In this document: in pieces, positions 5,483-15,124 of the stretch
How the letters are laid out: each line of letters begins with the position of its first letter
How positions within the stretch are numbered: the stretch's first letter is position 1
Sequence record: MW822011
DNA length: 64,000 nucleotides
Direction: 5' to 3' (one strand)
Source: Shigella phage TB004
Position numbers and translations under genes: made by a program
Notes under the pieces: generated by a model
Databases searched by the model: none
What the model saw: the letters and a program-made list of their open reading frames with translations, nothing else
What the model was told of the DNA's origin: nothing

Positions 5483-5555
5483 TGGGAATTAGCCAAGTTG
5501 GTAAGGCACTGGATTTTGATTCCAGGATGCAAAGGTTCGAGTCCTTTATTCCCAG
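5483..5555 (+). tRNA. tRNA-Gln (anticodon UUG)
   Basis: cloverleaf; acceptor tgggaat/attccca; anticodon loop ttTTGat; GGTTCGAGTCC T-arm. Confidence 0.8.
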
Positions 5556-5556
5556 C

Positions 5557-5643
5557 GCGAGAATGGTCAAATTGGTAAAGGCACAGCACTTAAAATGCTG
5601 CGGAATGATTTCCTTGTGGGTTCGAGTCCCACTTCTCGCACCA
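5557..5643 (+). tRNA. tRNA-Leu (anticodon UAA)
   Basis: type II tRNA with long variable arm; loop cTTAAaa; ends CCA. Confidence 0.8.
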
Positions 5644-5648
5644 AATTT

Positions 5649-5722
<74 letters not shown>

Positions 5723-5732
5723 ATTTAATTTA

Positions 5733-5806
5733 CTCCGTGTAGCTCAGTTTGGTAGAGCGTCTGCTTTGGGAGCAGAATGTCGCAGGTTCAAATCCTGCCG
5801 CGGAGA
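5733..5806 (+). tRNA. tRNA-Pro (anticodon UGG)
   Basis: acceptor ctccgtg/cgcggag; loop ttTGGga. Confidence 0.8.
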
Positions 5807-5808
5807 CT

Positions 5809-5898
5809 GGAGGCGTGGCAGAGTGGTTTAATGCACCGGTCTTGAAAACCGGCAGTCGCTCCGGCGACTCATAGGTTCAAATCCTATCGCCTCCGCCA
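5809..5898 (+). tRNA. tRNA-Ser (anticodon UGA)
   Basis: type II tRNA; acceptor ggaggcg/cgcctcc; loop ctTGAaa; CCA encoded. Confidence 0.8.
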
Positions 5899-5903
5899 GT
5901 TTT

Positions 5904-5976
5904 GCTGATTTAGCTCAGTAGGTAGAGCAACTCACTTGTAATGAGAAGGTCGGCGGTTCGATTCCGTCAATCAGCA
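5904..5976 (+). tRNA. tRNA-Thr (anticodon UGU)
   Basis: acceptor gctgatt/aatcagc; loop ctTGTaa; CCA encoded. Confidence 0.8.
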
Positions 5977-5977
5977 C

Positions 5978-6055
5978 CAAGGCCCTGTAGCTGGAAGGTT
6001 CAAGCAAGCGACTCATAATCGCCAGATGGTGGTTCAATTCCACCCAGGGCCACCA
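5978..6055 (+). tRNA. tRNA with CAU anticodon (Ile, lysidine type, or Met)
   Basis: acceptor ggccctg/cagggcc; loop ctCATaa; CCA encoded. Confidence 0.7.
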
Positions 6056-6068
6056 AATTAAGAATTAA

Positions 6069-6155
6069 GGGGAGTTATCCCGTAGAGGTAGCGGTGTGGA
6101 CTGTAAATCCATTGTCATTGCGACTCGGGTGGTTCGACTCCATCACTCCCCACCA
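6069..6155 (+). tRNA. tRNA-Tyr (anticodon GUA)
   Basis: type II cloverleaf; acceptor ggggagt/actcccc; loop ctGTAaa; variable arm resembles E. coli tRNA-Tyr; CCA encoded. Confidence 0.65.
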
Positions 6156-6159
6156 ATTT

Positions 6160-6234
6160 GGATGTGTAGCTCAGTGGTAGAGCAGTTGACTGTTAATCAA
6201 TTGGTCCATGGTTCGAATCCATGCATGTCCGCCA
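6160..6234 (+). tRNA. tRNA-Asn (anticodon GUU)
   Basis: acceptor ggatgtg/catgtcc with two G-U pairs; loop ctGTTaa; T-arm GGTTCGAATCC; CCA encoded. Confidence 0.6.
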
Positions 6235-6359
6235 AATTTGTGACAACTGTCACATTAATATCTACTTGACGCGATTATAGGGTTGAACTGATCACTCTTC
6301 TCTTAATTTCGTGTGAAGACATCTTGATTGTTGGAGTAGGTATTAATGTGAACTAATTA

Positions 6360-6436
6360 CGGGGTGTAACTCAATTGTATAGAGTAGCGGTCCTCTAAAC
6401 CGCAGGTTAAAGGTTAGAATCCTTTCACCCTGGCCA
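6360..6436 (+). tRNA. tRNA-Arg (anticodon UCU)
   Basis: acceptor cggggtg/caccctg; loop ccTCTaa; CCA encoded. Confidence 0.75.

Positions 6437-11419: not shown

Positions 11420-11438
<19 letters not shown>
11070..11438 (+). CDS. small membrane protein, paralog family member 3
   Basis: 122 aa from ATG 11070, TM helices, C-terminal FITECRKLK. Confidence 0.5.
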
Positions 11439-12405
<967 letters not shown>

Positions 12406-12476
12406 AGTTGTTTACTTTCTCCTAAAACTGTGATAGTATATTCACAGTTACTAATTAAAATATTTAAAGGAAACAC

Positions 12477-13044
12477 ATGAAAACCTATAAAGAATTTATC
12501 GCTGGAAAAGGCCAAAGGCATTAATAAAGATGAGTGGACTTACCGAGGAAACGGCTTTGACCCTAAAACAGCCCCTATTGAACGATACTTAGCTACAAAA
12601 GCTTCCGACTTTAAAGCTTTCGCTTGGGAAGGACTTCGCTGGCGTACCGATCTAAATATTGAAGTTGATGGGCTTAAATTTGGCCATATTCAAGATGTTG
12701 TTGCTAGTAACTTGGATGCAGCTTTTGTTAAAGCTGACGGTGACCTTCGTCGCTGGAATTTAAAACTATTCTCTAAACAGAAAGGCCCGGTGTTTGTGCC
12801 TAAAGCTGGTAAATGGGTTATTGATAATAAATTAGCTAAGGCTGTCAACTACGCTGGTCTTGAATTCGCCAAGCATAAATCATCATGGAAAGGTCTTGAT
12901 GCAATGGCCTTCCGTAAAGAATTTGCTGATGTTATGGCTAAAGGCGGCTTTAAGGCAGAAATAGATACCTCTAAAGGTACGTTTAAAGACGCTAATGTTC
13001 AGTACGCTTACGCTGTTGCTAATGCAGCCCGTGGTAATTCTTAA
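12477..13044 (+). pseudogene. ipIII: internal protein III gene, frameshifted after the capsid targeting sequence
   Basis: MKTYKEFIA then stop after 15 codons; remainder of IPIII-like sequence open in +1 frame; one extra G near 12504. Confidence 0.55.
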
Positions 13045-13152
13045 TAAAGCCGAGTTCGAACCCGGTAATAGATAAATATAGAAACAGACAATTCGCACGC
13101 ATGAATTGTCCCAAACTTAAAGAATAAAACTATTTACATTTAAAGGAAACAC

Positions 13153-13455
13153 ATGAAAACATATCAAGAATTTATTACTGAAGCGCGAGTGAGTGCAGGT
13201 AAATTAGAAGCCGCTATAAATAAAAAGGCCCATTCATTTCACGATTTGTCCGATAAAGACCGTAAGAAACTTGTAAGCCTTTATATTGACAAAGAGCGTA
13301 TTCTCGCTCTTCCTGGCGCTAATGAAGGTAAACAGGCCAAGCCTTTGAATGCTGTCGAAAAGAAAATTGATAACTTTGCTTCTAAATTCGGTATGTCTAT
13401 GGATGACCTTCAGCAAGCGGCTATCGAAGCAGCTAAAGTAATTAAAGGTAAATAA
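13153..13455 (+). CDS. ipII: internal protein II
   Basis: 100 aa with CTS MKTYQEFITE; matches recalled T4 IPII. Confidence 0.8.
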   Translation: MKTYQEFITEARVSAGKLEAAINKKAHSFHDLSDKDRKKLVSLYIDKERILALPGANEGKQAKPLNAVEKKIDNFASKFGMSMDDLQQAAIEAAKVIKGK

Positions 13456-13512
13456 CAGTTTACTTTCTCCTAGAATTGTGATAGTATATTCATAATTACT
13501 TGGAGGGGTAAA

Positions 13513-13877
13513 ATGACTCGTATTAATTTGACTTTAGTATCTGAACTTGCTGATCAACATTTAATCGCGGAATACCATGAATTGCCGCGTGTTTTTGATA
13601 TAATTCGTAAACACGCGGCAAATGGAAAAATGATTATAATCCATGCAAATCAGCTATTAAGTTGAGTCAACAACGACTCGATGAAAAAATTTTAATGAAG
13701 CCGCATTGGTATAAGTATTACGGCAAAAATATTTACATTCAAATAACATGGGAACAAGCTGGACCTCATGATTCTGTGAGGGATTCCCGCCAACCTGTAA
13801 TAAGGTCGAGCCCAAGTGCGGTAATGGGTAAATACAGAAATGGACAATTCATGCGCCACGGAATGGCCCAAATTTAG
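13513..13877 (+). pseudogene. denV: denV (endonuclease V) remnant with internal out-of-frame deletion
   Basis: N-terminal 39 aa match T4 EndoV, then frame breaks; C-terminal ...SQQRLDEKI..WYKYYGK.IY in another frame. Confidence 0.6.
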
Positions 13878-13887
13878 AGATAACAAA

Positions 13888-14427
13888 ATGAGAACATTTT
13901 TAACTGGTCCTTATCTATCCCTGATGAATGCTTTTACACACCATTCTGATGCTAGAGTAGAAGAAATTTGTAAAAATGATTATATCCCACCATTCGAAGA
14001 CTTACTCAAACAGTATTGCACACTTCGACTAGATGGTGGACGTCAATCCGGTAAATCAACTGCAGTAACTAATTTTGCCGCTAATTGGTTGTATGACGGT
14101 GGAACAGTTATTGTTCTTTCTAATACTTCAGCTTATGCTAAAATTTCTGCGGGCCACATTAAAAAAGAGTTTTCTCGTTATTCTAGCGATGATATTCGAT
14201 TCCGCTTATTTACCGATTCTGTCCGTAGTTTTATCGGTAATAAAGGAAGCAAGTTCAGAGGTTTATCGCTTTCGCGGATTTTGTATATAATCGATGAGCC
14301 TGTTAAATCTCCTGATATGGATAAAATTTACGATATTCATATTGAAACTGTGCACCACTGTTGCAATAGTAAATGCTGCATTGGTGGTATTACTCGTCCA
14401 CAGTTTTTCATAATCGGAATGCAATGA
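13888..14427 (+). CDS. P-loop NTPase-like protein
   Basis: Walker A GGRQSGKST and Walker B-like ILYIIDEP; 179 aa. Confidence 0.5.
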   Translation: MRTFLTGPYLSLMNAFTHHSDARVEEICKNDYIPPFEDLLKQYCTLRLDGGRQSGKSTAVTNFAANWLYDGGTVIVLSNTSAYAKISAGHIKKEFSRYSSDDIRFRLFTDSVRSFIGNKGSKFRGLSLSRILYIIDEPVKSPDMDKIYDIHIETVHHCCNSKCCIGGITRPQFFIIGMQ

Positions 14428-14753
14428 TGACAGACACGCAACTTTTCGAATATCTTTATTTTTCGCCAAAAACTATTAAAAATAAATTGGTGAATCATTT
14501 TGAAATTTTGGCAAATAACAACGTCTTGAGCGAATTTTATCCTAAGCAATACAAATTACAAAAAGGTGTATTCAAAGGATGCAGAGTTTTGTGCACTGCT
14601 CCTAATGCAAGATTAATGAATAAAATTCCATATTTTACCATGGAATTTATTGATGGGCCTTTTAAAGGACTAATTACCCAAAGTTTAATGGCATATGATT
14701 CTGAGCCATTTTTAATTAAAGAGCAATCTTGGATAAATTTATTTTCTAATTGA
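14424..14753 (+). CDS. hypothetical protein
   Basis: 109-aa ORF, start overlaps upstream stop (ATGATGA). Confidence 0.45.
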
Positions 14754-14761
14754 GAGGTTAT

Positions 14762-15124
14762 ATGAAAGCATATCAAATTCTTGAAGGCACGCATAAAGGT
14801 ACTATTTATTTTGAAGACGGTATTCAAGCACGAATTATTGTCTCTAAAACTTTTAAAGAGGACTCTTTTGTAGACCCAGAAATTTTCTATGGTTTGCATG
14901 CCCGTGAAATTGAAATTGAAACACAACCTACAGTTAAAATTGAGGGTGGTCAACACCTGAACGTTAACGTTCTGCGTCGTGAAACTCTGGAAGATGCAGT
15001 TAAGCATCCGGAAAAATATCCACAGCTGACCATCCGTGTATCCGGTTATGCAGTTCGCTTTAACTCTCTGACTCCGGAACAACAGCGCGATGTTATCGCT
15101 CGTACCTTTACTGAGAGCCTGTAA
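14762..15124 (+). CDS. autonomous glycyl radical cofactor (GrcA/YfiD-like)
   Basis: C-terminal glycine radical motif [11 protein letters not shown]; last ~60 aa identical to recalled E. coli GrcA. Confidence 0.8.

Follow-up and report, generated by a model that had tools for sequence, protein, structure and literature searches.

A denV pseudogene with a 187-bp deletion and an apparently undescribed leader RNA upstream of vs.8 in a T4-like Shigella phage

Positions 13513-13742 of the window (the whole stretch analysed here, 64,000 nucleotides of Shigella phage TB004, record MW822011) are best read as a denV pseudogene. denV encodes T4 endonuclease V (EndoV), the pyrimidine-dimer DNA glycosylase; the window appears to carry a JE01-type allele of it minus 187 bp between two AATGG repeats, and we put the probability of this reading, under which the phage would be expected to lack EndoV, at about 0.9. 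The nucleotides that follow, 13743-13877, belong not to denV but to the 5' leader of vs.8, and probably fold into a conserved RNA with a three-way junction. The pseudogene is ordinary gene loss for T-even phages: denV was known before to be lost in nature, and only the allele is new. The leader RNA, apparently undescribed, matters more.

A denV remnant in two pieces

The window comes from a T4-like (Tequatrovirus) genome and is presented on the strand opposite to T4 GenBank numbering. Its best public matches are only ~95-97% identical (JE01: 96.8% over the locus and 95.6% over 20 kb), and the genome is therefore a mosaic absent from the phage collection that we searched. The genes around the locus are, in order:

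11420-11875, nudE
11911-12405, e lysozyme
12478-13044, ipIII
13153-13455, ipII
13888-14427, + strand, vs.8, followed by vs.7 and vs.6

The denV remnant occupies the same place as denV of T4, after ipII and before vs.8, and can be divided as follows:

13502-13508, + strand, intact Shine-Dalgarno sequence GGAGGGG, 4 nt 5' of the denV ATG (read from the sequence)
13513-13620, + strand, N-terminal denV fragment, codons 1-36 in the original frame, with R22H, G29D, V31I and V35A (alignment to JE01 denV, Pfam, PHROG)
13621-13625, + strand, deletion junction with one AATGG copy, where JE01 has two (pairwise alignment)
13626-13665, + strand, continuation of the N-terminal ORF out of frame, up to TGA at 13663-13665 (translation)
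13620-13739, + strand, C-terminal denV fragment, codons 99-138, readable in frame 3 only, 95% identical to JE01 DenV (tblastn and translation)
13740-13742, + strand, site of the old denV stop codon, TAA in JE01 and in loci L019 and L022, CAA in the window, SP1, W143 and T2 (alignments)

Three-frame translation of 13513-13877 gives, in frame 1 from the ATG at 13513, codons 1-38 in frame, a 39th matching codon, 11 unrelated codons and then the TGA, and the only product from the denV ATG is a 50-residue peptide of 38-39 EndoV residues plus the 11 unrelated ones. The match of the first 39 codons and the position of the stop had been noted in the initial annotation, and translation, Pfam and PHROG all agree with it: the N-terminal fragment scores 24.4 bits against PF03013 Pyr_excise (cut-off 23) and E 2e-16 against PHROG 1183, 'endonuclease V N-glycosylase UV repair enzyme'. 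In frame 3, the EndoV C-terminus (...SQQRLDEKILMKPHWYKYYGKNIYI) is read at 13620-13739 (tblastn E 7e-23 against JE01 DenV), 40 codons with no start of their own, and the frame stays open as far as TAG at 13875-13877. The earlier placing of the C-terminus in a different frame therefore stands, whereas its extension to 13877 is true of the open frame only: denV homology ends at 13739, and 13743-13877 is assigned below to the vs.8 leader.

Searched against the whole window by tblastn, T4 and JE01 DenV match only 13513-13635 (aa 1-41) and 13620-13739 (aa 99-138), with no second denV copy in the 64 kb that the window covers of the ~168-kb genome. The N-terminal 38 and C-terminal 40 residues are 85% and 95% identical to JE01 DenV, and 80% and 56% identical to T4 EndoV (PF03013; PDB 2END, 1VAS, 2FCC). 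Taken together, these matches greatly exceed anything expected by chance. While all 13 distinct intact DenV homologues are 137-138 aa long, the ORF in the window is interrupted; measured against the T4 EndoV family it lacks a single ORF, residues ~39-98, R22, G29 and the stop codon, and is to be classed as a pseudogene and not as a member enzyme.

Deletion between AATGG repeats

The nearest intact allele, the 417-bp denV of phage JE01, aligns with the window throughout save for one 187-bp gap. AATGG occurs in JE01 at denV nt 109-113 and 296-300, 187 bp apart, and because the bases flanking the two repeats differ, the microhomology is exactly 5 bp; as 187 is not a multiple of three, the frame is shifted. 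That the 39th codon matches as well is fortuitous and due to the repeat, AAT GGA AAA reading N G K like the original AAT GGT AAG. Relative to a JE01-type allele, C-terminal homology resumes at W99 right after the junction; it had been placed about 30 nt beyond the break, an apparent offset that arose because the comparison used the more divergent T4 allele. Missing are ~62 codons, residues ~39-98 (187 nt being 62 1/3 codons), and not the roughly 70 first estimated. Alignment to intact alleles thus supports the original proposal that denV was cut to a remnant by an internal out-of-frame deletion, sets the junction at 13621-13625, and yields no full-length in-frame denV.

Judging from this footprint, the 187 bp would have been lost between the AATGG direct repeats by replication slippage or by illegitimate recombination at microhomology. 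Deletions between short direct repeats are well documented in the T4 rII system, and the window junction with its 5-bp microhomology resembles these spontaneous rII deletions. There is also a likeness to the cassette shuffling mediated by PeSL (promoter-early stem-loop) elements in hyperplastic regions of T4-type phages (PMC2839356, PMC4122927), in that the locus is flanked by repeated promoter/stem-loop cassettes in a region where ip genes and denV move between phages; however, the deletion is internal to a gene and the PeSL repeats themselves are unused. As to other occurrences of the junction, an 81-nt query against 50,697 phage records returned only two-piece matches spanning 268 bp, a junction 19-mer had five chance matches in IMG/VR, all unrelated, and a junction 28-mer had zero matches in JGI metagenomes.

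What was lost and what decayed

The nucleophile of T4 endonuclease V is the amino group of the N-terminal Thr2, and the catalytic acid is Glu23 (structures 2END, 1VAS and 2FCC). Both (MT..., ...YHE(23)LPR) are kept in the N-terminal fragment, contrary to the initial statement that the catalytic core is missing. Their retention would not be expected to rescue function without the remaining fold. The deletion takes out the middle of a small single-domain fold and leaves the C-terminal WYKYY aromatic segment out of phase, and either loss is enough to abolish function.

The four replacements R22H, G29D, V31I and V35A are found in 0 of 13 distinct intact DenVs (from 22 loci, 62-100% identity), among which positions 22, 29 and 31 are invariant; two of them change Arg22, a conserved basic DNA-contact residue, to His and the conserved Gly29 to Asp. 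Over the N-terminal 108 nt there are 4 synonymous and 4 non-synonymous differences from JE01, and the old stop has changed from the TAA of JE01 to CAA. With point decay beside the deletion, the pseudogene is, on this sequence comparison, real and not brand new; the four unique replacements and the loss of the old stop would have followed the deletion.

The phage is predicted to match T4 v- mutants and T2 roughly in UV sensitivity and to depend on host systems for pyrimidine-dimer repair, which would be relevant if it were used or stored under UV exposure. T2 and T6, naturally denV-defective T-even phages, are said to be about twice as UV-sensitive as T4, as Streisinger in 1956 and Harm in 1963 reportedly found. 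They resemble the phage studied here in being wild T-even phages without a functional v/denV gene, and denV is absent at this locus from the T2 and T6 records examined; however, there the gene is wholly absent and its neighbourhood rearranged (in T6, e is followed straight by regB), whereas the window keeps a two-piece remnant in a T4-like order.

Relatives, history and rival explanations

DenV is common: 1,062 of the 1,114 matching phage records have a tblastn match covering at least 80% of the protein, and the matches fall in 21 more places than there are records, so two-copy genomes exist. The gene occupies one of two sites, after ipII (T4, JE01 and the remnant in the window) or between e and ipIII (loci L008, L010, L030 and L034). 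The alternative site is empty in the window, where the e-ipIII space is 72 nt only. The nearest relative at the locus is SP1, whose DNA is 98.5% identical and whose IpII and Vs.8 do not differ from those in the window. SP1 and W143 have a smaller remnant of the same copy, in which GACTCG repeats bound a deletion that reaches from the start codon to codon ~117 and the old stop is likewise CAA, and besides it an intact denV upstream of ipIII. The remnant in the window is thus like theirs in being the same copy and in having a deletion between short direct repeats, but it keeps more of the gene (codons 1-38 and 99-117), has another junction and is without a second intact denV. Another denV remnant, aa ~96-137, is the only denV sequence genome-wide in vB_EcoM_G8. 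A tentative history, to which we give somewhat less than an even chance, is that the remnant decayed while a second copy covered the function in an SP1/W143-like lineage, and that the e-ipIII cassette then went missing through recombination.

These relatives bear on the three other explanations that we have considered for the locus. An intact denV could lie beyond the 64-kb window, making the remnant a redundant second copy in a phage still proficient in UV repair. SP1, W143 and SH-2 do have both an intact denV and this remnant, and the tblastn count attests two-copy genomes, but the intact copy of all three sits at e-ipIII, the very site that is empty in the window, and denV at any third site was not seen among the T4-like loci examined; we consider this explanation unlikely. 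Considerably less probable is that the real phage has an intact denV and that the 187 bp went missing in assembly or sequencing. The junction is known from one assembly and was in no other record or contig searched; however, a 5-bp microhomology is far too short for assembly collapse, SP1 and W143 show the same copy even more degraded, and the remnant has decayed independently, with four unique replacements, three of them at invariant positions, and a lost stop.

Least credible of all is that the locus still functions, by frameshifting across the junction or through an active 50-residue N-terminal peptide. The promoter-like sequence, the Shine-Dalgarno sequence, the ATG, Thr2 and Glu23 are all kept, yet even an in-frame fusion would be without residues ~39-98 of a single-domain 138-residue enzyme, the invariant R22 and G29 are replaced, and an Rfam scan of the region found no frameshift-type element. 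The pseudogene reading, which we prefer, makes the locus a clean, datable-looking case of accessory repair gene loss in T-even phages, by microhomology deletion and then point decay, and a caution for annotators: 'endonuclease V' labels at this locus may hide remnants.

The sequence upstream of vs.8 is a leader

The gene downstream of the remnant is taken to start later than in T4 annotation:

13888-14427, + strand, vs.8, a 179-aa P-loop protein of PHROG 1488 (unknown function), likely start MRTFLTG at 13888

The N-terminus of Vs.8 from this Met, M-x-x-LT-x-x-YL-x-LM-x-AF, is kept in homologues down to 36% identity, while the frames upstream of it vary between phages; the Met at 13888 is the likely true start. 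Annotation gives T4 Vs.8 a length of 219 aa and a start 27 nt past denV (NC_000866, our locus L001, positions 1137-1256 compared with window 13776-13887). T4 has an 8-nt insertion (GCTTATAG) that fuses the frame through the RNA element to vs.8, and it is because of this insertion that annotated T4 Vs.8 has 40 extra codons. The comparison indicates that the real T4 Vs.8 also starts at the Met of MRTFLTG and is 179 aa long.

The leader is conserved at the nucleotide level in T4-like phages, whichever gene lies upstream of it. From 13745 to the vs.8 start, the window and T4 are near identical, whereas their denV genes are only ~78% identical, and 21 IMG/VR contigs contain an exact copy of a 20-mer from the leader centre, some of them from phages with a Vs.8 of only 36-64% identity. 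Could 13743-13877 instead be protein-coding, as an N-terminal extension of Vs.8? T4 records do annotate vs.8 from 27 nt past denV, and open frames cross parts of the region. However, the frame ends in TAG 10 nt 5' of the vs.8 ATG in the window, JE01, SP1 and W143, T4 differing by its 8-nt insertion; the indels between phage groups (12, 4-5 and 33 nt) are not all multiples of three, and it differs from phage to phage which frame leads into vs.8 in phase. A 30-nt core is identical even though the Vs.8 proteins are 36-64% identical, compensatory changes and G-U pairs fall at paired positions and are workable on the + strand only, and the same core is present in other phages without vs.8. A coding role is accordingly very unlikely, and a coding spacer was rejected for the inconsistency of its frame between phages. 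The region is, by these comparisons, better taken as an RNA leader.

Between denV and vs.8, the T4 GenBank records annotate no regulatory feature, and literature on vs.8, the T2 v- allele and phage RNA motifs gave nothing usable. In T2 (AP018813, locus L039), vs.8 is split over three frames (5757-6392, - strand) and one Pa pair of the RNA core is broken by a G-to-T substitution (AAGG to AATG); gene and leader may have decayed together, or the record may contain a sequencing error. Further downstream in the window, the C-terminal end of Vs.6 (14750-15124, + strand) is the glycyl-radical motif of the autonomous glycyl radical cofactor GrcA/YfiD, and the gene is annotated grcA in one related phage record; the vs.8-vs.6 cluster 3' of the RNA element thus includes a glycyl-radical spare part.

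Structure of the leader RNA

The proposed structure comprises the following elements:

13750-13871, + strand, structured vs.8 leader RNA (covariance model, pair counts, RNAalifold)
13764-13769/13776-13781, + strand, P1 hairpin, its loop with an extra sub-hairpin in other groups
13790-13792/13825-13827, + strand, P2, closing stem of the three-way junction
13793-13796/13803-13806, + strand, Pa hairpin ACCU-GUAAUA-AGGU with loop GUAAUA
13810-13812/13816,13818-13819, + strand, Pb hairpin GCC-CAA-G(U)GC
13840-13845, + strand, conserved AUGGAC
13855-13857/13865-13867, + strand, P4 hairpin GCC-ACGGAAU-GGC with loop ACGGAAU, 20 nt before the start codon

The core follows the pattern (P2) N-ACCU-GURANA-AGGU-CNA-[3-bp hairpin]-GGUAA-N' (P2), in which the joining strands CGA and GGUAA of the three-way junction are invariant. 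R1, a covariance model built on the core, recognises a single copy in the window, at 13784-13835 (67.6 bits, E 2.6e-17; the next best match reaches 11.9 bits), and finds a copy 5' of 39 of the 40 IMG/VR Vs.8 genes, with a tandem second copy in three.

Pairing is maintained through base changes in each helix. The innermost P2 pair is A-U, U-A, C-G or U-G and the next P2 pairs are C-G or G-C; the Pa closing pair is A-U or G-C; Pb occurs as GCC/GGC, GUC/GAC and CGC/GCG, and P4 as GCC/GGC, GGC/GCC and AGC/GCU; P1 shows paired single-base deletions. Such G-U pairs as occur work on the + strand only, which is the strand of the genes. Counted over three alignments, in which the core is largely invariant and its invariant positions are silent on pairing, the cells that pair compare with slid controls as follows:

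Core alignment: 29 distinct sequences, 89.8% of cells paired, best slid control at most 50%, 3 pairs changed on both sides
Full length, 7 helices: 20 distinct sequences, 93% paired, slid control at most 45%, 6 pairs changed on both sides
Core including other phage families: 42 distinct sequences, 91.6% paired, slid control at most 44%, 5 of 11 pairs changed on both sides

In shuffle controls, whose significance is overstated as the sequences are related, 0 of 500 reach the observed covariation score of the 42 cores and 2 of 500 reach the 6 both-side pairs of the 7-helix model. RNAalifold independently finds Pa, Pb and P4. Folded as a single sequence, the leader is no more stable than its shuffles (z +0.5), and for this reason the structure rests on comparative evidence, by which the vs.8 leader appears to be a structured RNA with a three-way junction upheld by compensatory change.

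Two pairings were set aside. A first RNAalifold pairing of ACC with GGU was dropped, as diverse sequences show ACCU-AGGU with A-U changing to G-C, and a P3 helix, UUUACA/AUGUG, was left out of the model, having two competing registers and no clean covariation by eye. No known family accounts for the element: Rfam 15 gave nothing relevant at E at most 10 for the region or at gathering threshold for the whole window, and no family at E at most 1 in eight motif-bearing loci of other phages. ARAGORN calls no tRNA or tmRNA in 13000-14500, and the Rfam tRNA matches in the window lie only at 5483-6433. The latter are ten tRNA genes on the + strand, one of which (6071-6150) barely passes the Rfam threshold (30.2 bits against 29).

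Some T4-like phages have tandem three-way-junction modules 5' of vs.8 (L050 967-1130, L062 974-1136, L077 994-1136, and also L098 and L147). The second copy in L077 has quite different hairpins (ACCUUAAU-CUUA-AUUAAGGU and GAGAC-CGC-GUCUC) in the same architecture.

Distribution of the leader RNA

The core is present in ~700 phage records, T4 included, and nothing is annotated under the element in the records examined. A degenerate core pattern also matches contigs without Vs.8, among them ~46-kb phages, Klebsiella phage KpCHEMY26, rV5-like phages of ~137 kb and a 93-kb contig; 119 rV5-like records contain the whole 241-nt neighbourhood. The non-T4 copies score 35-52 bits with the T4-derived model and add to the P1 covariation (GAAUG/CAUUC, GAGUG/CACUC, GUGUAU/AUACAC). 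Most are on the same strand as tRNA genes and ~0.1-1.5 kb away from them, one lies between two tRNAs and another closes a large tRNA cluster; in L105 and L109 a strong intrinsic terminator comes directly after the element.

The loci of unrelated phages with the core and no vs.8 nearby are L083, L088, L096, L100, L101, L103, L104, L105, L108-L112, L117, L120, L124, L131, L133, L137, L139, L144, L149 and L152; HMD-6 and JLBYU08 are rV5-like examples. No exact copy of the 20-mer occurs in 185,579 bacterial and archaeal genomes. Two bacterial matches to the degenerate pattern were discarded as chance, lying inside a glyoxalase-like coding sequence of Alcaligenaceae MAGs, and L130 is of the same kind.

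Candidate roles

That 13750-13871 represents an undescribed, widespread class of phage structured RNA, a vs.8 leader in T4-like phages and a neighbour of tRNA clusters elsewhere, acting as a new cis-regulator or as a stable small RNA alongside phage tRNAs, is a proposal to which we give even odds. One candidate role is that of a cis-acting leader over the downstream genes, either a riboswitch or a polymerase- or protein-binding element; such a role would fit because of the orientation, the invariant unpaired bases and the arrangement of element, terminator and gene. Alternatively, processing of tRNA-cluster transcripts may yield the element as a stable small RNA. A third candidate, which concerns just the vs.8-proximal block (also found alone in four loci), is a translational operator. 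The P4 loop in this block shows A-N-GGA, with a second conserved AUGGA ~15 nt upstream, and the two resemble the consensus of CsrA-type sites. The Pa hexaloop GUAAUA is spelled like the 1093-1098 loop of 23S rRNA, which we mention as a lead only.

The leader RNA shares with riboswitches, put and CsrA-type leaders a compact junction, invariant unpaired nucleotides and a position upstream of, and co-oriented with, genes; the likeness to riboswitches, being one of architecture and position only, is suggestive. It matches no Rfam family. The nearest functional analogy may be put of phage HK022, ~70 nt with two long stem-loops that bind the zinc-binding domain of the RNA polymerase beta' subunit (PMC9378689). 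That description of put also sets the two apart, as the vs.8 leader would be a three-way junction with 3-4-bp hairpins.

What T4 annotation treats as the start of Vs.8 thus includes ~120 nt that behave as a conserved folded RNA, shared by hundreds of genomes from unrelated phage families. If confirmed, this would give the most studied phage genome a further RNA element and offer a handle on the vs.8 operon and on phage tRNA-cluster transcripts.

Repeats and recombination marks around the locus

Upstream of the denV remnant there is a repeated cassette:

13458-13500, + strand, early-promoter-like sequence plus stem-loop, a PeSL-like cassette 5' of denV and a 91% direct repeat of 12410-12452, 5' of ipIII

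Each 43-nt copy (12410-12452 and 13458-13500) consists of TTTACT...TAGTAT plus an inverted repeat, and a generic sigma-70 scan made no call on it. The 13458-13500 cassette is conserved in JE01, SP1 and W143 and nearly fits the T4/PST PeSL promoter consensus TTTACW-N17-TAYWAT (PMC4122927); we regard it as a putative promoter cassette. PeSL cassettes have been proposed to mediate gene shuffling in T4-type phages (PMC2839356, PMC4122927).

In the ipIII-ipII spacer (13042-13123, + strand), the 3' two-thirds of the RNA element recur as a degenerate copy, 75% identical over 53 nt. This copy begins at UAAUAA, where ipIII has its stop codons; GACAAUUC/GAAUUGUC takes the place of its last hairpin, and 13098-13111 is inverted relative to 13842-13855. 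The copy suggests past recombination within the RNA element. A 19-nt direct repeat (AAAAcTATTTACATTtAAA, 89% identical, + strand) is found at 13126-13144, just 5' of ipII, and at 13725-13743, at the denV end; recombination between the two copies would remove ipII and denV together. In G8-type phages, ipIII is followed by TATTTACATTCAAATAA and then by the RNA element.
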